This document shows positions 1 to 15,546 of a DNA stretch of 15,546 bases, in pieces (position 1 is the first letter of the stretch; each line of letters begins with the position of its first letter). A program made the position numbers and the translations under genes. The stretch covers positions 1-15,546 of IMG/VR virus record IMGVR_UViG_2541047895_000009; one strand, given 5' to 3'. The stretch comes from a virus. Lineage: Duplodnaviria; Heunggongvirae; Uroviricota; Caudoviricetes. The notes beneath the pieces are model-generated. The model saw nothing but the letters and a program-made list of their open reading frames with translations, was not told the DNA's origin and did not search any database.

Positions 1-662
<662 letters not shown>

Positions 663-922
663 ATCCACGCCAGCGTGAAGCTGGTATCTCCGGCAGATTT
701 CTGCCCCTGCCCGGTCGCAGTCCAGTCCGCATCTTCATCATCGAGATAGCTGTCGTCATAGGACTCAGCGCTCAGTTCGCCGGGCGTCAGGTCTTTAACT
801 TTAGCCAGACGCGACCAGTCAACGTCTGAAAGCGGGTTCGCATAAGGGTCACCGTTCCCCTTATAAACCCACAGGGTGGTCCCGGCCCCTTTCACCGGCA
901 TTACTGGATTTGGTACAGGCAT
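663..922 (-). pseudogene. V: major tail protein V, N-terminal 86 codons only, truncated by the IS insertion
   Basis: Translation [22 protein letters not shown]...DTSFTLAW matches the lambda gpV N-terminus, then reads into IS-derived sequence ([11 protein letters not shown], stop). ATG at 920-922 lies 7 nt after the U stop. Confidence 0.85.
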
Positions 923-929
923 ATCGTCC

Positions 930-1325
930 TCACATTTCATAGGTAATGACATAAGTCAGATCGGCTGAACTCCACAGGCCCGCATCATCGTCGCGCCGGT
1001 AGTCATAGCCACTGGCCACCATACTGGTGATCAAATCTGACAGTGCCGGGACATCGCTCATCACCGGATAAATCCGGGACTCCATCCACGAATCCAGCTC
1101 TGAATCCGGCACCTGAGCAGGCAGGAAAACTTCAATATGCAGCTCCGCCTGCCAGGTATCGCTGTCCAGCTCTTCGCCCGTGTATTCAGCGCCGGTGAGA
1201 TAAACGGCAACTGCCGGAAAATCCGCCTCATCAAAAACAGCGGGGCGACCATCAAAAAGCGTCGCCCCGGTGTCATGCTTCTCCAGTGCATCCAGTACGG
1301 CTGCACGGAGTTCTGTATGTTTCAT
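930..1325 (-). CDS. U: tail terminator protein U
   Basis: 131 aa, near-identical to lambda gpU as recalled ([22 protein letters not shown]...LTYVITYEM). ATGA overlap with the Z stop. Confidence 0.93.
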
Positions 1326-1900
1326 CGCTTTATTACCATCCTCAGTTGATGCTGCAGCGCATAGCCCAGCTCTTTCGGAAGACGTTCACGCCGTATCCGC
1401 TCAATATTCTGTTTAAACGCCGTGGTCAGCGGCACTGCCATCGGGATTTTCACCACATCAATGGGGTAACGGTTTTTCCCGGCCACACGCTGCATGACAT
1501 GCCACCGGCCATTTTTCAGTTGCTGAATAAACGCGCCGGGAATACGACGGTTTCCCACCACAAGCACGCTGTCGCCACCTTTCAGGGATGAACGCTGCCC
1601 CTTTTTACGACGCCTGCGTCGGGACAGGACAACCCGCGCGTTACCCAGCCTGATTACGGGCAAATCCCCCCGGTTAACCTTGATTCTGGCCTGCGGATTT
1701 TTGACCGTGGCCCTTTTCAGCCTGGCCCTTTCCTTTACCAGTTTCCGGCGTACCTTTGTCTCACGGGCAACCTGTGACGCCGACTGCGATATCGCGGATG
1801 AAGCAACGCGGTTAATGGCCATTGCTGACGCACCAGGCACCGCCGTTCTGCTGATACGGCTGAGGTTTTCAACGGCCTGCTCAAGACCTTTTATGGCCAT
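1322..1900 (-). CDS. Z: tail completion protein Z
   Basis: 192 aa, matches lambda gpZ length and sequence (MAIKGLEQAVENLSRISRTAVPGA...). AGGAGGAGG ribosome-binding site upstream of the ATG at 1898-1900. Confidence 0.93.
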   Translation of the reverse strand: MAIKGLEQAVENLSRISRTAVPGASAMAINRVASSAISQSASQVARETKVRRKLVKERARLKRATVKNPQARIKVNRGDLPVIRLGNARVVLSRRRRRKKGQRSSLKGGDSVLVVGNRRIPGAFIQQLKNGRWHVMQRVAGKNRYPIDVVKIPMAVPLTTAFKQNIERIRRERLPKELGYALQHQLRMVIKR

Positions 1901-1911
1901 ACCTCCTCCTT

Positions 1912-2265
1912 TCAGCGACGACGGTTAACGGCAGGCGGCACGCCACGCCCAAGCCAGAGATGACAGCTTCCGCCATCATCCGGTGAAATCCGGTCTATCC
2001 AGAAGTTTTCCTCACCGATGGTCAGCGTGTCGCCGCGCCGCAGCTGCCGCACATCATCAGTCCGGACAAACAGGGACGGGCAGGAGCCTTCAACACGTAC
2101 GCCCTGTCCGGCATAGCTGATATTTTCAGGGTCATCAAAAACACCACGTATTACTGCGCCGGACTGCTCACCGGATGTCATGGTGGCTGACGTTCCCATG
2201 TACCCGCGTATCGTTTCATCGGCGCGGGCAATGGCAGCATCGAACAGGTTATCGAAATCAGCCAC
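1912..2265 (-). CDS. FII: head-tail joining protein FII
   Basis: 117 aa, MADFDNLFDAAIARADETIRGYMG..., GTG start preceded by GGGAGG. Matches lambda gpFII. Confidence 0.92.
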   Translation of the reverse strand: MADFDNLFDAAIARADETIRGYMGTSATMTSGEQSGAVIRGVFDDPENISYAGQGVRVEGSCPSLFVRTDDVRQLRRGDTLTIGEENFWIDRISPDDGGSCHLWLGRGVPPAVNRRR

Positions 2266-2276
2266 AGCGCCTCCCG

Positions 2277-2675
2277 TTATTGCATTCTGGCCAGGCCACG
2301 TTCTGTCATTTCGGCTGCCACACCGGCAGAGACACGAAATGCCGTTCCCGGCAGCACAAATGCCACAGGTTCATCCCGCGTGGCGTGAAGTGCATCAGTA
2401 TGCAGCGTCACCAGTGCCACGACCGTGGCCAGTTCAGCCGTATCCTGAATCACGGTGTCCGGCTGCGCTGATACCACCTCATTTTCATGCCCGGTCAGCA
2501 CATTTTCCGGGCCGGGAGGGGTATCCTGACCCGCAGCGTCATCCGTGTCATCAAGCTCCTCTTCCAGCTCTGCCACACGGAGCGCCAGTTCTTCTTTCGT
2601 CCCCGTCAGGCTGACATCACGGTTCAGTTGTTCACCCAGGGAGCGGAGACGGGCAATCAGTTCATCTTTCGTCAT
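2277..2675 (-). CDS. FI: DNA-packaging/head assembly protein FI
   Basis: 132 aa from MTKDELIARLRSLGEQLNRD... to ...ERGLARMQ. GGAGGAG ribosome-binding site before the ATG at 2673-2675. The longer 145-aa ORF in the track is an upstream extension. Confidence 0.92.
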   Translation of the reverse strand: MTKDELIARLRSLGEQLNRDVSLTGTKEELALRVAELEEELDDTDDAAGQDTPPGPENVLTGHENEVVSAQPDTVIQDTAELATVVALVTLHTDALHATRDEPVAFVLPGTAFRVSAGVAAEMTERGLARMQ

Positions 2676-2716
2676 GGACTCCTCCACAGAGAAACAATGG
2701 CCCCGAAGGGCCATGA

Positions 2717-3508
2717 TTACGCCAGTTGTACGGACACGAACTCATCAGGGTCAGCCAGCAGCATCAGCGGTGCTGACTGAATCATGGTGAACTCACGCGC
2801 CGGATCGCCGGTGGTCACCCAGTTTTTCGGGTAGCGGGCAGAGGCGTTAATGCCTTCGCGCTGTGCGTCCGCATCCTGAATGCAGCCATAGGTGCGCAGA
2901 CCGCGTGCCTGAGTGTTCCCCAGTACCATCGTGTTGTCCGGCAGGAAGTTCTTTTTGACGCCGTTTTCCACGTACTGTCCGGAATACACGACGATGGCCA
3001 CATCGCCATACATCCCCTTATAGGACACCGCTTTACCCAGGTCTTTTACCGCTGTCTCCAGCTCGGAATTAGAGCCGCGACGGGTATCCAGCTTCTCCCT
3101 GACAGCTTTGAAGGAACGGAACAGCGCCCAGCCTTTCGGATCAAACACGATGATATTCACCACACCGCTGGCATTCAGCGCGTAGGCTTCAATATCGTCG
3201 GTCGGGTCATACGTGGACTTGTCACGCTTGCTCCACTCCGTGCCGCCGGACTGTGTGATGTTGTTCGCCGCACTGCGGCCCATATCCACCTCAACCGGAT
3301 CGAAGGCTTCACCGGTCATGGTGTATTTGCCCCTGAGCACGGCAGAAACGGCCTGCATCTCTTCGACCTGAGCAATGGCCAGCTCTTCGTCTCGCATGTT
3401 CTGCAGGATGATGCGACGGCGGCGGTAAGCCGGGTCCGCCAGATTCTGTGGATCTTCATCCGGCAGGCGACGCAGAGTCATCTGCGGATTCACCTCATGC
3501 TTGGGTTA
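2717..3508 (-). pseudogene. E: major capsid protein E, C-terminal fragment (codons ~83-341), separated from its 5' part by the inserted element
   Basis: Translation (PKH)EVNPQMTLRRLPDEDPQ...DEFVSVQLA matches the lambda gpE C-terminal 259 residues. An in-frame TAA lies immediately upstream of the homology and there is no promoter-proximal start. Confidence 0.9.
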
Positions 3509-3512
3509 CATG
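3494..3512. other. left junction of inserted element (attL-like): ctcaTGCTTgggttacatg
   Basis: Lambda E homology runs to about 3502, then diverges. The sequence is an imperfect direct repeat of 14911-14930 (aagTGCTTcggcttgacata), sharing the TGCTT core. Confidence 0.6.
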
Positions 3513-3583
3513 AGTCAAATATGAAAGGATGTGAATGATTTTTAGTGATAATATGCTTCAGAATTACTTCCAAAACGAACCGT

Positions 3584-3604
3584 TGCAATACATCATGCAA
3601 TACA
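3584..3604 (+). repeat. tandem direct repeats TGCAATACA (2 copies), candidate arm-type integrase-binding sites on the attL side
   Basis: TGCAATACA at 3584-3592 and 3596-3604. The same motif recurs in the same orientation at 14766-14802 beside int. Confidence 0.4.
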
Positions 3605-3626
3605 CAGGATATGTAAGGAGTTATTA

Positions 3627-3812
3627 ATGACTAATTCAGTTGATGTTCAAACCCGTAGAGAAGAATTTGAGCAAGGATATCGAGATGGCTTTCGTTCGGT
3701 TCAGGGCAATGTTTTACCCCCAAAAGCTCCAAGAATTGTACTTGAAACGGGTTCAAAACCTTACGATCAAGGCCATGCTTACGGGGTCAGAGATGCTGGA
3801 GGCAAGCGGTAG
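3627..3812 (+). CDS. small hypothetical protein (61 aa), first gene of the AT-rich cargo operon
   Basis: ATG at 3627 preceded by AAGGAG at 6-nt spacing. The overlapping alternative ORF 3640-3834 has no ribosome-binding site. No recognisable domain. Confidence 0.4.
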   Translation: MTNSVDVQTRREEFEQGYRDGFRSVQGNVLPPKAPRIVLETGSKPYDQGHAYGVRDAGGKR

Positions 3813-3856
3813 CTATCACTGGTATAGTCCATAGAAAAAGTGTAAGGGGTCCTAAA

Positions 3857-4618
3857 ATGGATAATTTTCTCAATGAGTTTTCGTCGGATCAGGAACGAGC
3901 TAGACATTTAGAGAACTTATTAATTAAGGTTGCTCGAGGAGGACCTCGAGATAATAGTGAAAATTATATTTCTCTTAGATCGTACTTTATACAAAACTCT
4001 GTATTAAAACTGTTGCTTCCTGCATTCGTAAGAGAAAACAGAAGCCTAAAAAAATTTTGGGGATTCATACAGCAGAAGTTCCCAACATATAAAGAGCGCG
4101 AGTACTTCATCTCAACTGAATTCACACCGTTATTCGATTATTTCGAAGAGAATCATGCTACGCCTTCGGATGTTCACATAACTGACGGATTAAGAAGCTA
4201 TGATGAGTGTGGCGTGAATGAAGCTTGGGCAAAAGCTCTAGACAGAAGAAACAACGATCCTGAAGGGGCTATTACAGCATCTAGAACATTGCTTGAGACG
4301 GTTTGTAAACACATTCTTGATGATTTAAGTATTACTTATGATAGAAATCTAGACATGAGTGAACTTTATAAACTAACATCCAAAGCACTTAATTTGGCTC
4401 CAGATCAGCACGGAGAACAGATTTTTAAGCAGATACTTAAAGGTTGCTCATCTGTGGTAAATGGCCTTGGCAATTTACGTAATAAATATGGCGATGCTCA
4501 TGGCATAGGGAAAAAACCAATAAAACCTGCTGATCGACATGCTCTTTTAGCTGTTAATCTTGCAGGAAGCATGTCAGTTTTCCTCATTCAAACATGGCAA
4601 AACTTGTCAAACAAATAA
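3857..4618 (+). CDS. Abi_C-domain (abortive-infection C-terminal, HEPN-like) protein, 253 aa
   Basis: C-terminal motif block ...TASRTLLETVCKHILDDL...GCSSVVNGLGNLRNKYGDAHG...ADRHALLAVNLAGSMSVFL matches the Abi_C pattern, including an R-x6-H motif (RNKYGDAH). AAGGGG ribosome-binding site 7 nt before the ATG. Strongly AT-rich relative to flanking phage DNA. Confidence 0.75.
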   Translation: MDNFLNEFSSDQERARHLENLLIKVARGGPRDNSENYISLRSYFIQNSVLKLLLPAFVRENRSLKKFWGFIQQKFPTYKEREYFISTEFTPLFDYFEENHATPSDVHITDGLRSYDECGVNEAWAKALDRRNNDPEGAITASRTLLETVCKHILDDLSITYDRNLDMSELYKLTSKALNLAPDQHGEQIFKQILKGCSSVVNGLGNLRNKYGDAHGIGKKPIKPADRHALLAVNLAGSMSVFLIQTWQNLSNK

Positions 4619-4671
4619 TACCTAATTTTTAACCTCAACTGATTAAATTTCGGTCAAACATCCGTTAGTGA

Positions 4672-4712
4672 AATACAAGTTGCTATGTAAATACACACCT
4701 GCAACTTGTATT
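4672..4712. promoter_or_regulatory. perfect 12-bp inverted repeat aatacaagttgc-N17-gcaacttgtatt, about 54 nt downstream of the Abi_C gene
   Basis: Read directly from the sequence. No U-run follows on either strand, so it is not a canonical intrinsic terminator; an operator or RNA structure is possible. Confidence 0.45.
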
Positions 4713-5572
4713 ACCAACCAAGTTTAGCTCCCGATATTACTCATTTCCATTATTTTTCCTTGGCTAGCGCTTCGTCGAACATTTTTACGTGTTATCTTCA
4801 AGGTAGATGCTCGCAGAAATGATAGTACCACCGATTCGGCGTTGACCATAAGCCAGCAGAACAAGATCCCCTTGGCCGGTTGTATTCGTTACACCACCAA
4901 ATGCATAGAATGCCTTGTTATCAGTATCTTGCTTACTCGGCTACCCACAAGATTGTGGGGATAGCATTTGAGCAACGTAGCCTATCGTCACAGAAGCCCC
5001 TACTACAAACATCATATTACTGGACGCTATACGCGCTCCTGACATTCAGATAGACACAGCAACGCAAATCATTTGCAGCAGACCAGAGCTTTTACTTTCC
5101 ACAATAACTGGCACAAATACGAATTTCCCGACCCTCAGTAGAGAGCACAAGCGCATCTTTTCCAATATTCTGTTTCCTATGAAAAATACAGAATGTCAGC
5201 TCGCGAAATTTACTAGTATTCAGATACTTTTCTAATCGAACCTCTCAGTTTAATCGTCATCATTACCTTATAGCTCTGCATTTCGAGTTCCTACAGTAGA
5301 GTAAGTGTTCAGTAACCCAAGTTCAGGAGAAAGGAAACGATCATGCCATTTTCAGTCCCAAATAATGCTTTCCATTTCCTTTCTTTTCAGGTGGTGTTTT
5401 AAATAAAAACATAAAGTTACGGCGAAGAAGAACGGAAACGCCTTAAACCGGAAAATTTCCATAAATAGAGAAAAACTGCGCGCCTTCCGCCCCGTAACGC
5501 TCCGGATCACCGGAAAGGACCCGCTCAAAAAAAGCGGCCACTGACGTGATTGTTTATGTTCCATGAGCGACA

Positions 5573-5592
5573 AAACCGCCCGGAGGCGGTTT
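5573..5592 (-). terminator. putative intrinsic terminator after the I-like gene
   Basis: Stem aaaccgcc/ggcggttt with a 4-nt loop. On the minus strand the stem is followed by UUUUG, about 20 nt after the I-like stop. Confidence 0.4.
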
Positions 5593-5610
5593 CACATAAA
5601 ACATTCTGCA

Positions 5611-6258
5611 TCAGCGACCAATCACCACGATTTCACCACCATCACCTTCATCAGCTGTGCTGATCTCCTGAGATACCACACGTGACCCCACGCGCATTTC
5701 ACCGTACAGAACAGGCAGGACATTGCCCTGGGCAACCATGTTATCCAGTGACGAGAAATACGTGTTCTGCTTACCGTTATCCGTTGTCTGTGTACGGGGA
5801 GTTCTGGCTTTCGGTGCCAGCATCTGAGCCACACCGCCAAGGATCATACTGGCCCCCGCACTATACATTCCTGTAATTGCTGCCGCTCCTAGCCAACCAG
5901 CGGGGTTCCACCACGCCACCGCAATCAGCGCCGCCCCCAGCACGGTCTGAAACACACCGCCACTTTTAGCGCCAGCAAGACGCGGTACGATGTGGATCAC
6001 AGCACCATTCGCCAGCGGCTCATTAAGACGGGCTGATAATTCATTTTCGCCTGCATCCCGCCCGGCAATCCGTACCTGATACCAACCGTCGCTCAGTTTC
6101 TGACGAAACGACGGTAGCTGTGTGGACAGAGCTCGGATGGCTTCAGCCCCCGTTTTTACACGAAGGTCGATGCGGCGGCCGAATCGTTGCAAATCCCCGT
6201 AAAGGCAGATTCGTGCCATGCCCGATGACGCCAGAGGGAGTGTGTGCGTAGTTGCCAT
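5611..6258 (-). CDS. lambda gpI-like tail assembly protein (215 aa)
   Basis: N- and C-termini (MATTHTLPLASSGMARICLYGDLQRFGRRIDLRVKTGAEAIRAL... and ...KQNTYFSSLDNMVAQGNVLPVLYGEMRVGSRVVSQEISTADEGDGG) match lambda gpI as recalled, with a divergent central segment. It is not followed by a J gene but by a hairpin and ORF-free DNA. Confidence 0.8.
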   Translation of the reverse strand: MATTHTLPLASSGMARICLYGDLQRFGRRIDLRVKTGAEAIRALSTQLPSFRQKLSDGWYQVRIAGRDAGENELSARLNEPLANGAVIHIVPRLAGAKSGGVFQTVLGAALIAVAWWNPAGWLGAAAITGMYSAGASMILGGVAQMLAPKARTPRTQTTDNGKQNTYFSSLDNMVAQGNVLPVLYGEMRVGSRVVSQEISTADEGDGGEIVVIGR

Positions 6259-6298
6259 TTGTCGGTATACCTCTCTCGTTTGCTCTGTTGTTCAGAAA

Positions 6299-6682
6299 TT
6301 AGCAGATCAACTTATAGCGTCCCTTCCGAGCATTGCGGCGTACACGTTCAATCTTGAGGCATAGCGCCGCATCTGGCTTTTTTGGGACTGGTACACGGCA
6401 ATATTCAGAAGCGCGAGGAATATTATTTATCCAGTCAATCACTTCGCTTAAATACCAGGCCTTACGCCCTTCCGTAACCTGCACACGCTCCGGGAACTCT
6501 CCACGGGCCTCAAGGTTTAGCAGTGTACGACGACTCAGGGTTGTAAGTTCCATCACCTGATTCATATCAACAAGACGCTCGCTTAAACGCATTTTGTCAG
6601 CGATAGCTTTTAATTCCTCTACAGCTGGATTTGGGTACATAATTTCGGCAATTGGCTTAAGGTCATTGTAATGATTCTGCAT
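6299..6682 (-). CDS. AlpA-family (MerR/Xis-type helix-turn-helix) DNA-binding protein with an N-terminal extension, 127 aa
   Basis: Core ...MELTTLSRRTLLNLEARGEFPERVQVTEGRKAWYLSEVIDWI fits the AlpA pattern. AAGGGGGA ribosome-binding site 5 nt before the ATG at 6680-6682. Confidence 0.6.
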   Translation of the reverse strand: MQNHYNDLKPIAEIMYPNPAVEELKAIADKMRLSERLVDMNQVMELTTLSRRTLLNLEARGEFPERVQVTEGRKAWYLSEVIDWINNIPRASEYCRVPVPKKPDAALCLKIERVRRNARKGRYKLIC

Positions 6683-6693
6683 TGTATCCCCCT

Positions 6694-7035
6694 TTACACA
6701 CGAGCCAGCGGCTGAACAGAAATACCTGAGCCAACAAACGCTGCAACCTTTACTGACAGTTCTTTTACAGACTCAGGCCAGTTCAGAGCATCAACATTTA
6801 AGACACCTGTCTTATAGACCTGAGCCTGTGTTTTTTTCGCGGTGTCGATTTGTACAGCGGATACATAAACCGCTTTACCTACGCTCGTACCATCCCATAC
6901 CACCAGTGCACCTGTTGCATCTTCCTGCATCAGTGGCGTAAATGCAGGAATTACCCCTTTATTAGCTGAAAATATCCCCAGCGTAGTAACCAGTGCTTCA
7001 GTGCCAGCCATGAGTTCAGTGTAATGAGTAGCCAT
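6694..7035 (-). CDS. gpD-like head decoration protein (113 aa), divergent from prophage D
   Basis: ALVVWDGTSVGKAVYVSAV...YKTGVLNVDALNWP aligns with the lambda gpD motif [19 protein letters not shown]...[23 protein letters not shown] ribosome-binding site; translationally adjacent to the E-like gene. Confidence 0.75.
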   Translation of the reverse strand: MATHYTELMAGTEALVTTLGIFSANKGVIPAFTPLMQEDATGALVVWDGTSVGKAVYVSAVQIDTAKKTQAQVYKTGVLNVDALNWPESVKELSVKVAAFVGSGISVQPLARV

Positions 7036-7044
7036 TGCTCCCCC

Positions 7045-8085
7045 TTAGCCAATGCGAACGGTAACAAAACGATTGATGCGGGCCGGTATTGGCTGTGGTG
7101 CTGAATGTGTCTGCACATATTCAATAGCCGGATCACCAGGCACAATATAGTTTTTCGGTGCAAGTTCGGCTTTAGTCAGCCCCATTCGGATTAGCTCCGG
7201 ATCCTGAATACCGCCATAGGCGACAATCCCCTGAAGAGCCGTATTGCCAAGCACCATCAAATCAGGATCAAGGAAATGTTTTTCAGTTCCGTCCTCGTCG
7301 GTATAACGCCCGCTGTAAACAACAATCGCAACATCGCCCATATACCCTTTAAAACTCACCGAATCACCAAGGTCTTTAAGGGCCGTTTCCAGTTCGGAAT
7401 TAGAACCACGACGGGTATCCAGAGCCTCTTTTATCGCTCTGAATGAACGGTATTTCTTCCATACATTACCGCCCATAATGATGATATTAGTGACGCCCTC
7501 ACTAAATTCTGCGTAGTTCTCAATATCATCATTTGGATCAAAAGTTTCTTTATCCTTACCTGACCACTCAGCACCGCCAGACTGAGTGATGATATTTTGT
7601 GGTTTAATATTCCAGTCCAGCTCATAACGTTCAATACCATCGCCCTCAATGATATTTTTCCCCGTTGTGATTGCCTGAACGGCAAGCCATTCAATACGTG
7701 CACGAATAGCTTTAGCTTGATTTACAATCGCCTGTTTAACTTTAATATTACGCGCCCCAAAAGCATTGTATTGCTCAGGTGATACACCAGCAGGGCGCAC
7801 AGCTAACTTATTTGGATCAATGCTGCTTTTCGGCTTCATATAGCCTGGACGAATTGTTTTTGATTCGTACCCTTCGTCACGTGAAACTTTACTACCCACC
7901 ATAGGAGAACAAAACGCTGCAATTGGGATATTTGGATCGTCGATTGTATCAAGAATAATATCGCGCGATTCAAACATTACCGAGCGAGTAAAAAACAAAC
8001 GGGTAAACAACGCATTTAGTTGTTTTTGTACATCTACAGCATTAACCACCTGTACAAGCTGGGTAGGCGAATATAAATCAACCAT
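7045..8085 (-). CDS. lambda E-like major capsid protein (347 aa), divergent second copy encoded within the inserted element
   Basis: Clear homology along its length to lambda gpE (GYMKPK vs GYVKPK; ITQSGGAEWSGKDKETFDPNDDIENYA vs ITQSGGTEWSKRDKSTYDPTDDIEAYA; LDTRRGSNSELETALKDLG...GDVAIVVYSG). Start taken at the ATG at 8083-8085, 6 nt after AAAGAGG; the 404-aa track ORF is an upstream extension. AT-richer than the prophage E. Confidence 0.85.
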   Translation of the reverse strand: MVDLYSPTQLVQVVNAVDVQKQLNALFTRLFFTRSVMFESRDIILDTIDDPNIPIAAFCSPMVGSKVSRDEGYESKTIRPGYMKPKSSIDPNKLAVRPAGVSPEQYNAFGARNIKVKQAIVNQAKAIRARIEWLAVQAITTGKNIIEGDGIERYELDWNIKPQNIITQSGGAEWSGKDKETFDPNDDIENYAEFSEGVTNIIIMGGNVWKKYRSFRAIKEALDTRRGSNSELETALKDLGDSVSFKGYMGDVAIVVYSGRYTDEDGTEKHFLDPDLMVLGNTALQGIVAYGGIQDPELIRMGLTKAELAPKNYIVPGDPAIEYVQTHSAPQPIPARINRFVTVRIG

Positions 8086-8259
8086 ACGCATCCTCTTTGC
8101 ATTCATTAAAAATAATTGTGGATATATGCTATCACCGATATTTGTCATGCGAATACATGCAACCGAGTGCAATGTTGTATAAAGTTTTGGGATGACAACT
8201 TCAGCGCGGATAATTAGTGTTAATATCTTCACTCCCTTTGGTCGGGATTTATGTAGCAT

Positions 8260-8294
8260 GCCGGAAAATTTATTTTTTTCCGGCCTTTTTTATT
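8260..8294 (+). terminator. GC-stem hairpin plus T-run (gccggaaaa-N7-ttttccggc CTTTTTTATT), terminator-like on the plus strand
   Basis: Read from sequence between ssb and the E-like gene. The U-run follows the stem only on the plus strand, so it would stop antisense or convergent transcription rather than ssb read-through. Confidence 0.35.
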
Positions 8295-8302
8295 GGCAAT
8301 AT

Positions 8303-8752
8303 TTAAAACGGAATATCATCTCCCCATTGCTCATTATCTCCCACTGGTGGATGGCTTCCTTGCTGATCTGCCTGTTGTTTTGCTCTGTTCAGTGCGTCAG
8401 TAGCCTGCCCCTGTTGGCCTTTTTTGCCGCCCGGTCGCACCGTTCGCGCACTGATTACGCTGTCTGCGATAACCTGCCAGCCCTGCCGCGTTTCACCGTT
8501 CTGTCCAGTCCACTGACTCACCTGCATGTTACCCGCCACGCTCAGGAGTTCGCCTTTGTGATGCTTTGCCAGCGCGTCGGCTTGTCTGCCAAACGCCAGA
8601 ACAGATAACCACATCGTCGCCTGACCGTCATCCGATTGGCTGCAGGGCAGTGATACCGCCATACGCGCCAGCGTCATGGGGGTGCCCTTGCTGGTCTGTT
8701 TTGTCTGCGGGGCGTCCACCAGCCGCCCGTAAGCTGCTATTTGCGCCGTCAT
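8303..8752 (-). CDS. ssb: single-stranded DNA-binding protein (SSB)
   Basis: 149 aa. OB-fold-like N-terminal region, Gly/Gln-rich linker and the hallmark acidic C-terminal tail ...WGDDIPF. ATGA overlap with the upstream ORF. Confidence 0.85.
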   Translation of the reverse strand: MTAQIAAYGRLVDAPQTKQTSKGTPMTLARMAVSLPCSQSDDGQATMWLSVLAFGRQADALAKHHKGELLSVAGNMQVSQWTGQNGETRQGWQVIADSVISARTVRPGGKKGQQGQATDALNRAKQQADQQGSHPPVGDNEQWGDDIPF

Positions 8753-9006
8753 GCTGCCTGCTCTCCGGACTTAATATTGATGGTTGTCACTTCCTCCGCT
8801 TCGGCAATCTCCCGTTCGGTCAGCGTGGCAAAGTTTGCAGCCGCCGTTGTCATGAATGCGCTTATCAGTTCGGGATGTGCTTTCGCGTATCCTTCCCCGG
8901 CGTTGCGGTCTATTGCCTTAATCGCCACCCTTAGCCAGTGTTCAGCCATATCAAGGGCGCGGTAATGTGGCTTTATATGTTTGTTCAGTTTTCCTGATGT
9001 GTGCAT
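8749..9006 (-). CDS. hypothetical protein (85 aa), between origin and ssb
   Basis: ORF translationally coupled to ssb (ATGA overlap). No recognisable motif. Confidence 0.45.
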   Translation of the reverse strand: MHTSGKLNKHIKPHYRALDMAEHWLRVAIKAIDRNAGEGYAKAHPELISAFMTTAAANFATLTEREIAEAEEVTTINIKSGEQAA

Positions 9007-9051
9007 TTTTATTTTTACCCCCTCGTTTAAAAAGTTTTTTGTGCACCACCA

Positions 9052-9283
9052 CCTTGTCTACCTTGTCTACCTGATTAGTTATCAGGCCAGTAATGGCGCG
9101 GGTTTCAGGGAGGTAGACAGCCCCAAATAGCTGTCTACCTCATCTCTACCCGTCTCCTTACCTGTCTACAAAAATGGGTAGATAAGGTAGATAACAGGTA
9201 GACAGTGAAAAATAGTTATCTACCTGCATTAATACATTGAAATAAAAGTATTTTCTTTCAGTCAGGTAGACAAGGTAGATAAC
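9052..9283. repeat. iteron array, putative replication origin: at least 11 copies of GGTAGA(C/T)A / T(G/A)TCTACC in both orientations
   Basis: Copies include cttgtctacc x2 (9053-9071), gaggtagacag, gctgtctacc, cctgtctaca, gggtagataaggtagataacaggtagacag, ttatctacc and caggtagacaaggtagataacc. Lies immediately downstream of the primase gene in an AT-rich non-coding gap. Confidence 0.7.
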
Positions 9284-9295
9284 CATTGCCATTTT

Positions 9296-11047
9296 TTATA
9301 AAAACGCATCGCAATCATCAGTAGTCGTTGCGTTGGTCTGCGTGACTCCCTTAACTTTTCGCGTAATATATTCATATCCGTAAACTTTCGCCGCTGACCT
9401 CATAGCCTTTCCGAACTCATTCACGCTCAAACATTTCCCCTTTCCTGTGTATGCCATGAAGGCCATATAGACACGGTAAAGGCTGTTTCTGGTCGTGTAC
9501 TTCACGGAGTCACCACCACCGCCCATCATTAGCCCACGAGCTTCCTCCAGAAACTCAAGCGCCGCGCAAAGCTCAACAACTGGATCCGTTTGCTGCTTTA
9601 TTGCCAGAGCTTCATCACCGTCACGCTGTTCCAGTAGTAAAGCCCTTGCCTTTTCAGGGTCAGCAAAGTTAGCCAGCAAGCGGCGGATAATTACGGGGAT
9701 TTCTGCCGCTATCTTTTCCGGTAATTCCTTGTCTTTTTCGTCCTCCCTTACAATGTTGTCGAACCGGAAAATCACCCGACGGCGTGACACACCTCCGGCC
9801 CGTTCGGTAAAGATCATCGGGTCGTTATTGGTTGCCAGTACCACCGCCCTTATTATCGTCGTGAATCGCTTCTCATATTTCGGATTGATTTCAACGGGAT
9901 CGCCTCCCGTGATTTTCTTGATGCCCGTGCCTTCCCCCGTATATTTCGGCTGATCGGCAAGGACGATAAGACGACTCCCGACAACCTGCGCGCGCCCTCC
10001 TGCATCATCGAGTGATGTCATCTCTGCGCTTACGGTGTTCTGTTTGCCTGCAAGCAGGGTGGCAATATGGGTAAATGTACTCTTACCGCTTCCCCCGTCT
10101 CCGGTGGCCTCAATGAACATCTGCCAGTCGTAGCGGTTCGCCATAATCATGTATAACGCGGCACATATACGCATCATCTTGCGCGGGTCTTTTCCTGCAG
10201 CATGTTCAAGCCATTTATGGAAATTTGGCGCATTATCGCGGATGTTTTCCCCTGCTACTGGTGGCGTGTACTCAATACCATTGTGCGTGGTGCTCCAGTG
10301 CTCCGGCGAGTGCGGAGAAAATTCCCCCGTTTTCAGATTAAGCACACCATTAGTGAACGGTAGCAAATCACCGGACGGCTCCCCCATGGGGGCGGCAATA
10401 ACTTTTAACGCTTCCACGGCGTTATTGATTACGCGTTTGCTGAACGTGGCCCTGTGCTCTGAATAGATCGCCACCATTTCGCGGCTCAGCTCCATTGTGC
10501 TGACCGGACACCATACCCCGCCGCGCCATACGTGGACGATTTCACTTTCTGCATGAACACAAACACCATCAAAGCGATCGGCAAGTAGTTGTGCCCGCTC
10601 ACTGTCTGCCATCTGTGAAAGTTGCGCCTTTTGCTTCGTCGGAAGATTAAGCACCAGGCTTTCCCCACGCTCGCATTCCTCTTTGAGTCGCGGCAACTGG
10701 TCGGATAAATCCACAGGGCTGGTGTCAGTAATCCCCGCGTATTCGTGTACGGTCTTCACTCCAGCCACAGCCAGTAACGTAACAATCTGCGTCATGCTGT
10801 GCTCTGTGATATGTCCTGCGCGGTAAACACGCACACACTGACGATCTTCATCAATGATCCGGTAATCGGTGATGTTTTTCAGTTGCTCATCAGCCAGCAC
10901 GACAGGCGGCACATCGTCGGCGGCAATATGTTTACCCGCCCATTCCTGCCACTCTTTCGCATGGCTCCACGCATCACTACCTGCAAAGATGATTACCTCT
11001 GTCAGTCTGTCGCGTGGCTGTTTTTTTAAGTTCGGTGCCAGTTTCAT
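9296..11047 (-). CDS. P4-alpha-type primase/replicase (D5-N / phage-plasmid primase C-terminal family), 583 aa
   Basis: Walker A P-loop EATGDGGSGKSTF plus the typical satellite/PICI primase-helicase layout. ATGA overlap with the upstream 99-aa ORF. Confidence 0.88.
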   Translation of the reverse strand: MKLAPNLKKQPRDRLTEVIIFAGSDAWSHAKEWQEWAGKHIAADDVPPVVLADEQLKNITDYRIIDEDRQCVRVYRAGHITEHSMTQIVTLLAVAGVKTVHEYAGITDTSPVDLSDQLPRLKEECERGESLVLNLPTKQKAQLSQMADSERAQLLADRFDGVCVHAESEIVHVWRGGVWCPVSTMELSREMVAIYSEHRATFSKRVINNAVEALKVIAAPMGEPSGDLLPFTNGVLNLKTGEFSPHSPEHWSTTHNGIEYTPPVAGENIRDNAPNFHKWLEHAAGKDPRKMMRICAALYMIMANRYDWQMFIEATGDGGSGKSTFTHIATLLAGKQNTVSAEMTSLDDAGGRAQVVGSRLIVLADQPKYTGEGTGIKKITGGDPVEINPKYEKRFTTIIRAVVLATNNDPMIFTERAGGVSRRRVIFRFDNIVREDEKDKELPEKIAAEIPVIIRRLLANFADPEKARALLLEQRDGDEALAIKQQTDPVVELCAALEFLEEARGLMMGGGGDSVKYTTRNSLYRVYMAFMAYTGKGKCLSVNEFGKAMRSAAKVYGYEYITRKVKGVTQTNATTTDDCDAFL

Positions 11048-11343
11048 TTTTTGCCCCTGAATGCGTTAATCATGCTTTTCATTTTCTGGATGTTTCCCCG
11101 CGCTTTTTCCCTGCTGGTGGGCTTACTGCGGGGTGCGGCATATACCAGGGAAAAATCACGCCGGAACTGATAAACAGGCATCACGCAGTCATAGCTATAC
11201 CCCTCACGGCGGTAAGTGATGCGCCGTTCTGCCACGCCTTTAATCGTTACCGTGCCGCCGTATTTATCGCGGTAAATATCGCCGTTCATAAATTCAGGCC
11301 GAGCGGGGCCGCTGGCAATAAAGCCAGAATTTTTCATTTCCAT
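11044..11343 (-). CDS. hypothetical protein (99 aa), translationally coupled to the primase
   Basis: ORF with ATG at 11341-11343; its stop overlaps the primase start. No motif recognised. Confidence 0.55.
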   Translation of the reverse strand: MEMKNSGFIASGPARPEFMNGDIYRDKYGGTVTIKGVAERRITYRREGYSYDCVMPVYQFRRDFSLVYAAPRSKPTSREKARGNIQKMKSMINAFRGKK

Positions 11344-11360
11344 ATTATTTATTCTTCGAC

Positions 11361-11582
11361 TTAACTCGACTTATTTGATAGCAGGGCACTATTTATTGCG
11401 TCATTGAGTTTTTCTGCTGCTTCATCAATAAGTGACAACAGGCCATAAGCAATATTTGCATCTTCATTGTCATTTATGCAATCAAGCCACATATTTAATA
11501 TTGCTTTTGCTGAATTATTTAAAGTTAATGAACTCTCTGCACATGCTAACAATTTAAAAAAGACTTCTCGTTCTGTATTCAT
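11361..11582 (-). CDS. hypothetical small protein (73 aa), AT-rich
   Basis: ORF in a tightly packed same-strand array upstream of the primase. Confidence 0.45.
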   Translation of the reverse strand: MNTEREVFFKLLACAESSLTLNNSAKAILNMWLDCINDNEDANIAYGLLSLIDEAAEKLNDAINSALLSNKSS

Positions 11583-11774
11583 TTAATCCCCCACCAGCTT
11601 ACTTTCTTCCTCAATCAGGAAACTAGCGACACTTCCCGAAAGGCGCGCCAGTAGGCTCGCCAGCGCGGATATATCAGCATCTGTAATTTTGTTCGGGTAT
11701 ACCTCAAGAAGGCGGCAAATAATCTCTGTTTGGTGCGCACGTTCAGCGGCTTCGTGTAATGTGATTTCCTGCAT
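11583..11774 (-). CDS. hypothetical small protein (63 aa)
   Basis: ORF abutting neighbours with start/stop overlaps, suggesting an operon. Confidence 0.45.
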   Translation of the reverse strand: MQEITLHEAAERAHQTEIICRLLEVYPNKITDADISALASLLARLSGSVASFLIEEESKLVGD

Positions 11775-11959
11775 TAATGCACCTCTTTTAATTCATACAC
11801 TGCTGAAATAATGACTTGTGATAAGCCATATTCTGATGATTCGCTTCTCACCGCAGCAATAGCCGTCTGAACATTAACAGCCTTCACGTTCTGAGCGATA
11901 CCAATTGTGTGGCCTCGTGGGTTAACAGCTCGGGCAAATACACGGAAGGTTTTAAGCAC
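11774..11959 (-). CDS. hypothetical small protein (61 aa), GTG start
   Basis: GTG at 11957-11959 preceded by AGGAGG at about 6-nt spacing. Overlaps the stop of the upstream ORF. Confidence 0.45.
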   Translation of the reverse strand: MLKTFRVFARAVNPRGHTIGIAQNVKAVNVQTAIAAVRSESSEYGLSQVIISAVYELKEVH

Positions 11960-12155
11960 GGCGCACCTCCTGACGAATACGGGCAGCGAATACCATCACG
12001 CAGCCAGTTGGGGATTGCTGGCGGGCTTCCTGTTCGCTGATGGCCTCGATGGTAATCACGCGCGGTTGTGCCGTACTCAAGGCGATAAAACGCCAGATGT
12101 ATTTATTCAGGTTGTGCGAGTTCCGCCCTTGCGGGTGTGTGGTATGATTTCTCAT
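11952..12155 (-). CDS. hypothetical small protein (67 aa), first gene of the leftward regulatory operon
   Basis: ATG at 12153-12155 preceded by GAGGT. The longer track ORF (to 12215) would run through the upstream inverted-repeat region. Confidence 0.45.
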   Translation of the reverse strand: MRNHTTHPQGRNSHNLNKYIWRFIALSTAQPRVITIEAISEQEARQQSPTGCVMVFAARIRQEVRRA

Positions 12156-12190
12156 AGCTACCTCGATACTGTTGCTATCGTTGGTGGTTA

Positions 12191-12292
12191 AACGCCCTGT
12201 ATGTGTTGCGAGCACTGCAGGGCGTTGTTCCAGAGCAATAAAACATGATAAGGTGTGTACCTATCAAGAAGCATACTAAGCAATAGGTACAT
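12191..12292. promoter_or_regulatory. divergent promoter/operator region with two inverted repeats
   Basis: AACGCCCTG-N18-CAGGGCGTT (12191-12226) and GTGTACCTAT-N18-ATAGGTACAT (12255-12292), located between the divergently oriented small-ORF operon and the RHH gene. Confidence 0.4.
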
Positions 12293-12294
12293 AC

Positions 12295-12489
12295 ATGTCA
12301 ACTATCATTCAGCGCGATAAACAGCCGAAAGGTGCTGGTAAGGCACCGGCATTTCAGATCCGTATCAACCCGGAACTAAAAGAACAAATGGTTAGTGCGG
12401 CTGCAAAAGAAGGAATGAGTTTGGCTAATTGGCTTAAAGAACTAGCAAGAGCAGAACTACGCAAACAAGGTATTGAACCTAGAGGTTAA
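12295..12489 (+). CDS. Arc/ribbon-helix-helix-type small DNA-binding protein (64 aa), candidate repressor or antitoxin
   Basis: KAPAFQIRINPELKEQMVSAAAKEGMSLANWLKELARAELRK fits the RHH beta-strand plus two helices pattern. No obvious Shine-Dalgarno; the second inverted repeat abuts its start. Confidence 0.6.
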   Translation: MSTIIQRDKQPKGAGKAPAFQIRINPELKEQMVSAAAKEGMSLANWLKELARAELRKQGIEPRG

Positions 12490-12513
12490 GACTTTTAAAA
12501 GGATCTGTGAGAG

Positions 12514-13239
12514 ATGCAAAATCTAAAACGAATAAGTGAATATAATTTAACAGACAATCCTATCCCACATTATTTCCCTCATGATAGTAGATTCCTGTCT
12601 CTACTTGGGAAATTTTCGTTCCGACTTGAAGATCTAATAGTATTTCACTCATTTGTTTATCATACATATAACATAAATCTTAAGGAGATACAAAAAATTG
12701 CAGATAACACTCCCCAATATAATCCAGACTTATTAGACGATGAAGAGCATGAAATGGCCTTGATTTCTCAAGCCAGACATAGAGAGAGGGTTGGTTATTA
12801 TGATGATCTTAATAGAAAAGCCTCATTTTTTGCCAATGACAGTGTCGTAATTAATCTTTGGGCTATTATTGAACAGTTTAGTACCATGGCATACTCTTTG
12901 CTAGAAGCAATTATTAAAGAAATACCTGAAAATCAAGTTAAAGTTCCATATACATGGGATAAATTAAAAAAGAAATACTTAAGTTATGGTATTGACCTCT
13001 CCCAACTTGATTCTTACGATGTCATTAACGAAACTAGGGTTTTAAACAACAAAATCAAACACCTTTATATTGTCGATGAAAACCTTGCCTCTTTTCCTTT
13101 TTTCAAGGACAAAGAGAACAAGTCATTATTAGGAATGGAATATAGGCTTCAAGATTATGTTATTGGAACTCATAAGTTCATCGGGCATCTTTTAGAGGAT
13201 TGCTCCATAAAATTAGGAAATAAGGCAAACATGATTTAA
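12514..13239 (+). CDS. hypothetical protein (241 aa), very AT-rich cargo gene downstream of the RHH gene
   Basis: Long uninterrupted ORF 24 nt after the RHH gene. No motif I can assign with confidence. Confidence 0.65.
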   Translation: MQNLKRISEYNLTDNPIPHYFPHDSRFLSLLGKFSFRLEDLIVFHSFVYHTYNINLKEIQKIADNTPQYNPDLLDDEEHEMALISQARHRERVGYYDDLNRKASFFANDSVVINLWAIIEQFSTMAYSLLEAIIKEIPENQVKVPYTWDKLKKKYLSYGIDLSQLDSYDVINETRVLNNKIKHLYIVDENLASFPFFKDKENKSLLGMEYRLQDYVIGTHKFIGHLLEDCSIKLGNKANMI

Positions 13240-13243
13240 ATTA

Positions 13244-13270
13244 ATTAGGTAGGTAATAAACCTACCTAAT
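13244..13270. terminator. perfect 10-bp inverted repeat attaggtagg-taataaa-cctacctaat between convergent genes
   Basis: Read from sequence; sits between the 241-aa gene (+) and alpA (-). AT-rich flanks on both sides, so possibly a bidirectional terminator. Confidence 0.45.
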
Positions 13271-13279
13271 TGAAATGAT

Positions 13280-13513
13280 TTACTTATTTAAGTACCATTC
13301 CCCACGAATCCACGCCTGCACCTCCGAAAGGCGATATGCTACGGCAGTGGCACCTATTTTAATTCGCTTTGGAAACTTTCCTTCTTTCTCTAACTTCCAT
13401 CGAGTGCTATTAGCAAGAGTAGTTAACTCACGGCATTCTTTCTCACGGATCATTCGGTCAATGTTAGGAATGTATTCCAGACCCTTTTTATCAACAATTG
13501 CCATTTTTTTCAT
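13280..13513 (-). CDS. alpA: AlpA-family excisionase/transcriptional regulator (77 aa)
   Basis: ...CRELTTLANSTRWKLEKEGKFPKRIKIGATAVAYRLSEVQAWI fits the AlpA helix-turn-helix pattern. Immediately downstream of int on the same strand. Confidence 0.8.
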   Translation of the reverse strand: MKKMAIVDKKGLEYIPNIDRMIREKECRELTTLANSTRWKLEKEGKFPKRIKIGATAVAYRLSEVQAWIRGEWYLNK

Positions 13514-13514
13514 G

Positions 13515-14750
13515 TTAACCAGCCTTTTGTTTGAGGATTGTCACTTTTGAATCAGCAGCTGCGATGCTATTGAGATATGTAGTCCAGAGTTCCAGAGCAT
13601 CCAGTTTTTTAGCCATAAACTTACTCCGGTTGTAAACACCTGCCACGCCAGGTAGCGCATGGCCTAACAGTTGTTCTACTACATAAAATTCAACACCGAG
13701 ATCACTTAGATGAGTAGATAGCGTTCTTCTAAGGTCGTGTAGTGACCATTGTTTTTCATGGCCCAAACGTTTACCGATTTTCCCCCCAATCTTGCTTACG
13801 CTTTCTCTAATTCGCAGACTTCCCAGCACATAACCAGTATGTTTTGTCTCTTCGTGAACATCCGTTACCCACTGTCGTAGAATTTCAGGTACTGGTCTGA
13901 CGATTTCAACACCAGTTTTTGAGTGATCTTTTGGTACAGTCCAAACCCAACTTTCGAGATCCCATTCGCTCCATTCTGATAATCGGGCTTCACTCATTCG
14001 ACATCCAAATACTGTACAAAGCACAAACATTTTTCGCGTGTATTCAGACATTAGTTTTAAATCAGGCTCGACAAAAATTGCCTTCCAGAGCTGGCCGAGT
14101 TCGGCTTCATCCAGAACCCGATCCCGCTTACCTGCAATCTGCCCCACATCACTCATGCGCAAATCCTTTAAAGCATCACACGTCGCGTACTGGCGTACCC
14201 GACAAAAACGAAGAGCTAATTTAGTGTCAGAAAAAACATACGCCGCCATAACTGGTGCATTACTTTTAATTCGGTCAAAACAGTCCAGCCATTCATATAG
14301 GTGAGTGTCATTTACGGGCAAATGACCGATATAGGGAAAGATATGCTTTCGAAATCTGCCAAGCGTTACAGCATGAGTTTTACGACGCACCTTACAGTAA
14401 TTTTCATACCAGTAATTTAGTGCATCCTCCACTGTGACCGGCTTTAAGCGTTCTTCAGCCTGAATCTTAATCTGGATACGCGGATCACGTTTGTCAGCCA
14501 ACCAAGCACGGCACTCGTCGCGCTTTTCCCTTGCCTGTTTGAGTGACATATCAGGATATTTACCCAACGTTAGCCAGACCGGAGCAGCCCGGCCACCTGC
14601 TAACCTGTAGAAGAAAACAAAGCTCACAGCCCCCTTGGTACTCACACGAATAGAAAGCCCCTTTCCATCAGCAATGGTGATCTGCTTTTCTCTGGGTTTC
14701 CCCAGATATCCTTTAAGTGCTTTGTCGCTCAGTTTGTTCTCGCCAGCCAT
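13515..14750 (-). CDS. int: P4-type tyrosine integrase (411 aa)
   Basis: N-terminal arm-binding-type domain (LSDKALKGYLGKP...ADGKGLSIRVSTKGAVSFVFFYRLAGG...WLTLGKYPDMSLKQAREKRDE) and a catalytic domain with R...HDLRRT...LLGH...Y. Start taken at the ATG at 14748-14750; the 455-aa track ORF is an upstream extension. Ends about 160 bp inside the right junction. Confidence 0.9.
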   Translation of the reverse strand: MAGENKLSDKALKGYLGKPREKQITIADGKGLSIRVSTKGAVSFVFFYRLAGGRAAPVWLTLGKYPDMSLKQAREKRDECRAWLADKRDPRIQIKIQAEERLKPVTVEDALNYWYENYCKVRRKTHAVTLGRFRKHIFPYIGHLPVNDTHLYEWLDCFDRIKSNAPVMAAYVFSDTKLALRFCRVRQYATCDALKDLRMSDVGQIAGKRDRVLDEAELGQLWKAIFVEPDLKLMSEYTRKMFVLCTVFGCRMSEARLSEWSEWDLESWVWTVPKDHSKTGVEIVRPVPEILRQWVTDVHEETKHTGYVLGSLRIRESVSKIGGKIGKRLGHEKQWSLHDLRRTLSTHLSDLGVEFYVVEQLLGHALPGVAGVYNRSKFMAKKLDALELWTTYLNSIAAADSKVTILKQKAG

Positions 14751-14765
14751 TTTTAGCCCCAAAAA

Positions 14766-14802
14766 GCAATACAAGCTGCAATACAGAGATGATTGCAACA
14801 CA
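14766..14802 (+). repeat. direct repeats GCAATACA x2 plus variant TGCAACACA in the int upstream region, candidate arm-type Int sites
   Basis: gcaataca at 14766-14773, tgcaataca at 14777-14785, tgcaacaca at 14794-14802; same motif and orientation as 3584-3604 at the other end. Confidence 0.4.
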
Positions 14803-14882
14803 CAGATAACGAGGAAAATCCAGTGAAAGCGCCAGATAAACTTATTCTTTATTATCAAAAGATTAAGTGTAAAAACCAGCAA

Positions 14883-15158
14883 CTACACGAAAGCCTCAGA
14901 AAGCCATGCTAAGTGCTTCGGCTTGACATATCCCGGCGTAAATTCAGAGGTGGAGCCGCCACGGGAGCGGATAACCTCACCGGAAACAATCGGCGAAACG
15001 TACAGCGCCATGTTTACCAGCCCCGGAATTTGTGAGAGATAGACTTTCTCCGTGGTGAAGGGATAGCTCTCACGGAAAAAGAGACGCAGAAACAGCGGAT
15101 CAAACTTAAATTTCTGCTCATTTGCCGCCAGCAGCTGGGCGGTTGTGTACATCGACAT
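14883..15158 (-). pseudogene. E: major capsid protein E, N-terminal fragment (codons 1-82) fused to 9 element-derived codons and a stop
   Basis: MSMYTTAQLLAANEQKFKFDPLFLRL...SEFTPGYVKPKH matches the lambda gpE N-terminus, then LAWLSEAFV and stop from element DNA. Confidence 0.9.
14905..14930. other. right junction of inserted element (attR-like): gctaagTGCTTcggcttgacata
   Basis: Lambda E homology begins at about 14914. Imperfect direct repeat of 3494-3512 sharing the TGCTT core. Confidence 0.6.
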
Positions 15159-15213: not shown

Positions 15214-15546
15214 TTAAACGATGCTGATTGCCGTTCCGGCAAACGCGGTCCGTTTTTTCGTCTCGTCGCTGGCAGCATCCGGCCAGAGCACATCCTCATA
15301 ACGGAACGTGCCGGACTTGTAGAACGTCAGCGTGGTGCTGGTCTGGTCAGCAGCAACCGCCAGAATGCCAACAGCAGCACCGTCAGTGGTGCCATCCCAC
15401 GCAACCAGCTTACGGGTGGAGGTATCCGGCATCAGCGGGGTCATTGCAGGCGTTTTCGCACTCAATCCGCCGGGCGCGGTTGCGGTATGAGCCGGGTCAC
15501 TGTTGCCCAGCGGCTGGTAATGGGTAAAGGTTTCTTTGCTCGTCAT
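15214..15546 (-). CDS. D: head decoration protein D
   Basis: 110 aa, [27 protein letters not shown]...[11 protein letters not shown], matches lambda gpD. The start codon is the last three bases of the window. Confidence 0.93.

Follow-up and report, generated by a model that had tools for sequence, protein, structure and literature searches.

Helper-embedded phage-inducible chromosomal islands (HE-PICIs) were described by Tommasini, Mageeney and Williams (NAR Genom Bioinform 2023, PMC10111431), who report 201 instances at the site E:Phage_cap_E:80 and 290 more in 13 other late-gene sites. Their prototype, Eco567.11capE of Escherichia coli NRG857c, is an 11-kb PICI located in gene E of prophage 50icd, and carries its own capsid gene as well as a 10-bp block of identity between the attachment sites attL and attR. 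Following treatment with mitomycin C, the composite of helper and satellite was excised and replicated, and at about 2 h precise excision of the satellite generated attB and attP, as monitored by quantitative PCR and deep sequencing; virions of the prototype or its helper were not recovered (PMC10111431). Here we analysed the 15,546-nucleotide (nt) stretch that makes up the IMG/VR virus record IMGVR_UViG_2541047895_000009 (hereafter the window), in which a lambda-type major capsid gene E is interrupted between codons 80 and 82 by an insert of 11,416 bp (window about 3499–14914). The insert is almost certainly an HE-PICI of the site group E:Phage_cap_E:80, namely an 11.4-kb cos-type satellite of lambdoid phages, and we encountered no evidence contradicting this classification. 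An earlier note on this DNA had known of no description of site-specific targeting of a phage structural gene by a satellite-like element. Such a description exists: insertions of this kind, the site and the element family appeared in print in 2023, as did near-identical copies of this very element, together with the 201 instances and the precise excision of the prototype.

The supplement of PMC10111431 lists two copies with the identity block 'aagca', Eco8487.11.E_Phage_cap_E_80 (CP027550.1/1601914-1590499) and Eco8567.11.E_Phage_cap_E_80 (CP027103.1). The coordinates given for Eco8487.11 map to positions 14914 and 3499 of the window, and both of its junction segments are 100% identical to those of the window. 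CP027550.1 is also the closest genome overall, being 99.76% identical over 13.9 kb, but 32 mismatches and a length difference of 45 nt in the helper gene Z set the two apart. These differences indicate that the window derives from a close relative or another assembly, rather than from the exact CP027550.1 record. We note that Z (minus strand, in the region of window 1539–1643) measures 579 nt in both the window and NRG857c, compared with 534 nt in CP027550.1.

Both parts of the interrupted gene are encoded on the minus strand, with the head decoration gene D upstream and the genes FI, FII, Z and U downstream, as expected for insertion at about codon 80 of E within the late region of a lambdoid prophage. 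Translation from 15158 to 14913 yields MSMYTTAQ...FTPGYVKPKH (M1 to H82), followed by the element-derived residues LAWLSEAFV and a stop codon, and this fragment is annotated in CP027550.1 as 'major capsid protein, missing C-terminus'. The second part reads PKHEVNPQM...FVSVQLA* from about 3505 to 2717 and is preceded by in-frame stop codons. When the two halves are fused at their common PKH codons, the resulting 341-aa protein aligns over residues 1–341, without gaps, to residues 1–341 of lambda gpE (PDB 7vi9_A, E = 7.8e-227). Thus, as the earlier note had maintained, no coding sequence of E has been lost or duplicated beyond the att core. In Pfam, the Phage_cap_E profile is matched at positions 1–78 by residues 5–82 of the N-terminal fragment and at positions 94–328 by the C-terminal fragment, and the split itself falls at K79-P80-K81-H82. 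The earlier note had placed the halves at 14913–15158 and 2717–3508, which is right to within a few bases. While the overall split stands, the limit at 3508 does not, since it includes a TAA (3506–3508) that is element sequence, and the E-derived part is certain only from 3502 downward.

The pentanucleotide TGCTT, which the earlier note had reported at both junctions, is indeed present at each, and corresponds to AAGCA on the coding strand, with a distance from core to core of 11,416 bp. On the coding strand, attL of the window reads GTCAAGCCG-AAGCA-CTTAGCATGG and attR reads CATGTAACCC-AAGCA-TGAGGTGAAT, such that attP can be reconstructed as …CATGTAACCC-AAGCA-CTTAGCATGG…. The predicted junction sequences are …CATGTAACCCAAGCACTTAGCATGG… for attP and …GTCAAGCCGAAGCATGAGGTG… for the restored E gene. 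As in the published group, where the block of identity is aacccaagca or a shorter version thereof, attL and attR have AAGCA in common and CCn precedes it. The block in the window comprises only the 5 bp AAGCA, in contrast to NRG857c, where attL is GTCAAACCC-AAGCA-C... and the block extends to the 10 bp AACCCAAGCA. The shorter block results from the E allele of the window being lambda-like (AAG CCG, compared with AAA CCC), which introduces two third-codon mismatches to attP. Both mismatched bases are retained on the E side, and thus the exchange took place at or 3' of the CCn codon, within AAGCA. The description of attP and attB as partially homologous in the earlier note was accurate. In a further IMG/VR contig (UViG_2840363982_000001, locus L045), CCG precedes AAGCA in attL and attR alike, and hence the position before AAGCA either lies within the strand-exchange overlap or is polymorphic in attP.

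The sequences flanking the core are similarly characteristic of the family. HE-PICIs carry a specific doubled motif, tgTGTATTGCantgTGTATTGCa, in two co-oriented copies; relative to the attP centre, one lies 81 +/- 2 bp upstream and the other 132 +/- 2 bp downstream (PMC10111431). Within the window the motif TGTATTGC has two exact matches, where 0 would be expected by chance, and these flank the reconstructed attP on both sides at distances of 84 and 131 nt, close to those published. The integrase gene lies just inside the right junction, as stated previously, with its start codon (14750) 163 bp in. The encoded protein is identical to the integrase of 11capE from NRG857c at 407 of 411 residues (99.3% nucleotide identity), which by sequence identity places it in the 11capE clade.

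To determine how widely the junction is distributed, we searched 5,426 complete E. coli genomes with a right-junction query that joined the 5' end of int to the N-terminus of E, requiring at least 80% of the query to be covered. The junction is present in 172 of these genomes and the integrase gene in 179. By contrast, the left junction with the particular cargo of the window was found in four genomes only, indicating a conserved integrase end and a variable distal cargo. The element side of attL is contained in 56 IMG/VR contigs, and in every one (56/56) the N-terminus of E is located upstream and ends at the same codon; no attP or excised circular form was found among these 56 matches. Where both ends are visible, the element measures 10.6–11.7 kb. 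An exact-pattern scan for the element side of attL in one-genome-per-species contigs, which include a single E. coli genome, gave no match. Across the 56 contigs, codons 79–80 occur in six versions (AAGCCG, AAACCC, AAGCCA, AAGCCT, AAGCCC and AAACCG), and the E sequence near the junction varies as well. The use of one codon in such varied E sequences argues for site-specific targeting in repeated events.

This recurrence bears directly on two other origins that could be envisaged for the split. Were the window an assembly chimera, in which a satellite from elsewhere had been joined to two halves of E, the same junctions would have to have arisen artificially in many independent complete assemblies of long-read level and in different E sequences, with the cores and flanking motifs placed as expected for attL and attR. 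We found no point in its favour, regard its probability as negligible and have rejected it. The remaining proposal, a single illegitimate or secondary-site event in E that was subsequently repeated through inheritance or spread of the prophage, is hardly more probable and can be considered effectively refuted. While the perfect identity of only 5 bp between attL and attR would fit such an event, the same codon is used across the six versions of codons 79–80 and in diverse nearby E sequence, as well as by satellites that carry different cargo. In addition, the integrase phylogeny in PMC10111431 tracks the site groups, and the precise excision of the prototype was demonstrated experimentally in the same study. 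The proposal in the earlier note that a satellite-like element entered the capsid gene of a helper-type phage by tyrosine-integrase recombination, in a site-specific rather than illegitimate manner, is correct and agrees with the family, the motifs and the search of other genomes that it had suggested.

A separate question is whether the HE-PICI in the window is still active, or whether it is an immobile fossil, locked in a decayed prophage and maintained by vertical inheritance or by its AbiJ-like cargo without excision or transfer. We give this latter reading slightly less than an even chance. Several observations weigh against present activity. The tail tube gene V of the helper is cut after roughly 85–100 codons by an IS3-family element (V fragment 662–952; window 1–662 and the IS3 copies of locus L058 share 99.7% identity). 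In CP027550.1 and CP027103.1, the closest two genomes, the same prophage is found at one chromosomal site next to mdtA and has lost G–J and a large part of the early region, with no intact phage integrase remaining. In RM14723 both int and the primase gene of the satellite are frameshifted. The cargo variant is present in just four or five of the 5,426 genomes, and the five identical bases of attL and attR, compared with ten in the prototype, may lower the efficiency of excision. Moreover, the published work yielded no virions of 11capE or of its helper, so that the E:Phage_cap_E:80 group is not known to be transferred. On the other hand, the window retains int, alpA, the primase gene, the two copies of the doubled motif, the two att cores and cos in intact form. 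The fossil reading also bears on present activity only, and leaves the identity of the element and its route of arrival unchallenged. The helper in the window is unable to make tails, and its induction is unlikely. Because V is cut by the IS3 element, this copy of the HE-PICI is likely to be stranded, unless another lambdoid phage supplies the helper functions.

For an active HE-PICI at this site, the following scheme can be proposed. The tyrosine integrase recombines attP with codons 79–82 of E, leaving the satellite in the orientation of the late operon. Upon induction of the prophage, the composite of helper and satellite would be excised and replicated, with the satellite itself excising later, by analogy with 11capE, for which this order was observed. 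Excision of the satellite would then restore an intact E gene and free a circular satellite. As the satellite lies in cis within the late operon, E would presumably not be made before this step. Late transcription of the helper may continue past the E' fragment, drive int and alpA, and thereby trigger excision; as weak evidence for such read-through, the scan from E' to int revealed no terminator-like site on the minus strand. The freed 11.4-kb circle would be expected to replicate with its own primase, and could be packaged through its lambda-type cos by the helper terminase into particles built by the helper. The statement in the earlier note that integration would abolish capsid production thus holds with respect to the block, but not to its permanence: according to the published model, expression of E is only delayed, and resumes once the satellite has excised late in induction (PMC10111431). 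In the window, the truncation of V by the IS3 element is a further defect of the helper.

The features of the window are collected in Table 1. The backbone genes of the satellite are all encoded on the minus strand, as is E, such that int, alpA and the primase gene are co-oriented with E, D and FI–V. The size of 11,416 bp lies within the 10–20 kb of Gram-negative cos-type PICIs, and the order int, alpA, variable zone, primase and replication genes, and late zone is theirs as well.

Table 1. Features of the window (helper, junctions and satellite)
Feature	Position	Strand	Evidence or remark
Helper E, N-terminal fragment, codons 1–82	14914..15158	-	Translation, Pfam; final 5 nt are the att core
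Helper E, C-terminal fragment, codons 81–341 and stop	2717..3502	-	Translation, Pfam, alignment
attL core AAGCA (+ strand TGCTT)	14914..14918	-	Between E codons 81/82 and element
attR core AAGCA (+ strand TGCTT)	3498..3502	-	Sequence comparison of junctions
Doubled motif TGTATTGCagctTGTATTGC, candidate arm-type binding site	14766..14785	-	Begins 131 nt downstream of core centre
Doubled motif, second copy TGTATTGCatgaTGTATTGC	3585..3604	-	Finishes 84 nt upstream of core centre
Tyrosine integrase, 411 aa, Arm-DNA-bind_3 and Phage_integrase	13515..14750	-	Pfam
AlpA-family regulator, likely excisionase	13280..13513	-	Pfam Phage_AlpA, E = 6.5e-15
Variable zone: HicB-like 64-aa protein and 241-aa protein	12295..13239	+	Zone unlike that of 11capE
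Small early genes: Icd-like/repressor-like (phrog_6196), three small open reading frames (ORFs), DUF4222	11044..12215	-	Profile matches, annotation
Primase/helicase (D5_N, DUF5906, Pox_D5; P4-family primase C-terminal domain)	9296..11047	-	Domain search
85-aa protein (phrog_1231) and single-strand DNA-binding protein (SSB)	8303..9006	-	Profile matches
E-family major capsid gene of the satellite, 346 aa	7045..8085	-	Pfam Phage_cap_E, E = 4.5e-41
D-family head decoration gene of the satellite, 38% identity with helper D	6694..7035	-	Profile match, comparison
Second AlpA-family helix-turn-helix regulator	6299..6682	-	Pfam
Captured helper-type late genes: K fragment and complete tail assembly protein I homologue	5611..6299	-	Pfam Lambda_tail_I, E = 1e-23; CP027550.1 annotation
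Lambda-type cos site (150 bp), cosN overhang GGGCGGAAGGCG	5375..5524	-	Similarity to helper cos
Accessory cargo: 61-aa ORF (3627–3812), then 253-aa AbiJ-like/Abi_C abortive-infection protein (3857–4618)	3627..4618	+	PADLOC, Pfam
Helper head decoration gene D, directly upstream of E	15214..15546	-	Pfam HDPD
Late genes of the helper: FI, FII, Z, U and truncated V (tail tube)	662..2714	-	Pfam, annotation
3' part of IS3-family transposase/insertion sequence, outside satellite, truncates V	1..661	+	rve domains

The variable zone separates alpA from the small early genes, and its two genes are encoded on the opposite strand. The 241-aa protein has no match in Pfam, NCBIfam or PADLOC, and may form a toxin-antitoxin or defence pair with the HicB-like, antitoxin-type protein of 64 aa. 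The capsid protein encoded by the satellite is 42% identical to helper E (BLASTP), and the region equivalent to the att site has diverged (IRPGYMKPKSS). The K fragment and the I homologue adjoin the E-like and D-like genes of the satellite, an arrangement that fits the 'late gene capture' described for PICIs. The 253-aa cargo protein is of HEPN type and matches both AbiJ (PADLOC, E = 2.4e-22) and Abi_C (Pfam, E = 1.7e-23). Since the prototype carries DUF262 and HEPN genes at the equivalent position, the distal end looks like an exchangeable slot for defence genes. Between the Abi gene and cos, the approximately 750 bp of window 4619–5370 contain no ORF of at least 60 aa and no Rfam match, and the phage collection provided no match to this segment beyond the cos part. 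The Rfam scan of the entire window at gathering thresholds likewise returned no RNA family.

The cos site of the satellite is similar, but distinct, to that of the helper. Its cosQ and cosB parts are 87% identical to those of the helper cos, and no terminase match was found among the scanned satellite ORFs; judged from sequence, the element therefore combines a helper-type cos with the lack of its own terminase, in line with the cos region that is common to 11capE and its helper (PMC10111431). Among the loci compared, the helper cosN is the canonical GGGCGGCGACCT in 10 of 11 helper cos sites. The satellite cosN is GGGCGTCAGGCG in 13 of 16 cases, GGGCGGAAGGCG in the window and in locus L058, and canonical in one, with cosQ and cosB of the satellite sites remaining lambda-like. 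We had considered cosN as a satellite-specific adaptation, but have downgraded this idea, since the variant of the window, GGGCGGAAGGCG, recurs as the cos of PhiR46_1, an N15-like phage that has nearly the same terminase: its large terminase gpA is identical to helper gpA at 635 of 641 residues, and its Nu1 is 93% identical to helper Nu1. The GGGCGGAAGGCG variant thus probably belongs to the natural polymorphism of cos and is compatible with a terminase that is essentially unchanged. The non-canonical GGGCGTCAGGCG found in most E-site satellites might, though we consider this improbable, represent an adaptation to a particular class of helper cos. A literature search on the cosN 12-mers retrieved unrelated papers only.

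With respect to its wider meaning, the window represents one more, already catalogued instance of an HE-PICI. HE-PICIs had already shown in 2023 that other mobile elements can become the targets of evolving integrases, and that the excision of a satellite can be coupled to late gene expression of its helper. The value of the present locus is modest, and lies in the example that it provides of integration into an E allele sharing just five identical bases with attP, of the turnover of defence cargo in HE-PICI satellites, and of a satellite outliving its helper. A more speculative and, in our estimation, improbable idea is that such a satellite acts as an insertional defence. Upon superinfection by a lambdoid phage, it could excise and insert into E of the replicating invader, thereby knocking out the capsid while being carried along; the AbiJ-like gene would provide a further layer of defence. 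The idea stems from the att machinery being intact though the resident helper is dead, and from the integrase accepting E genes that match attP at AAGCA and two further bases only.

The helpers of the satellite phage P4 are of P2 type, and its integration site is a tRNA-Leu gene. The element in the window shares with P4 the architecture of the integrase (Arm-DNA-bind_3 and Phage_integrase), a P4-family primase domain and a gene annotated as Icd-like, although the primase domain TIGR01613 scores 104.2 bits, just below the NCBIfam cut-off of 108.7. It departs from P4 in that the scanned satellite ORFs have no Sid, Psu or Delta-type matches in Pfam or PHROG. A capsid gene of HK97 fold is shared with the capsid-forming PICIs (cf-PICIs; Alqurainy et al. 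2023, as cited in PMC10111431). However, the element has only the E-like and D-like genes, with no portal, protease, head-tail connector or small terminase among the scanned ORFs.

A resemblance in organisation is seen to EcCICFT073, the model Gram-negative cos-type PICI. As described in PMC10111431, EcCICFT073 has the size class of the present element, the int-alpA-primase organisation, the dependence on a lambdoid helper, a cos site in place of a terminase and a capsid homologue; according to the same paper, transfer in this model does not require the PICI capsid genes. EcCICFT073 differs in its chromosomal site and in interacting with its helper in trans only. It retains cosN and cosQ and has a different cosB, which is read by the Rpp-TerS complex (Fillol-Salom et al. 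2018; 2019, PMC6739421). The cos of the window exhibits the reverse situation, with a lambda-like cosB and only the cosN overhang differing; no search was aimed at an Rpp homologue.

The locus of the prototype Eco567.11capE in NRG857c (L001) has the same architecture as the window. In addition to the shorter identity block, differences are observed in the distal cargo, where the DUF262 and HEPN genes of Eco567.11capE contrast with the AbiJ-like gene and K'-I fragment of the window, and in the zone next to alpA, which encodes the HicB-like and 241-aa proteins in the window and is different in Eco567.11capE. The cosN of the prototype is GGGCGTCAGGCG rather than GGGCGGAAGGCG, and its helper 50icd resides at icd, whereas the helper type of the window adjoins mdtA and is degraded. 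Nevertheless, the two satellites have the same integration codon, attP sequence, doubled TGTATTGC motifs and late-operon orientation, and share a backbone that comprises int, alpA, the small genes, primase, SSB, capsid, decoration protein, second AlpA-like regulator and cos.

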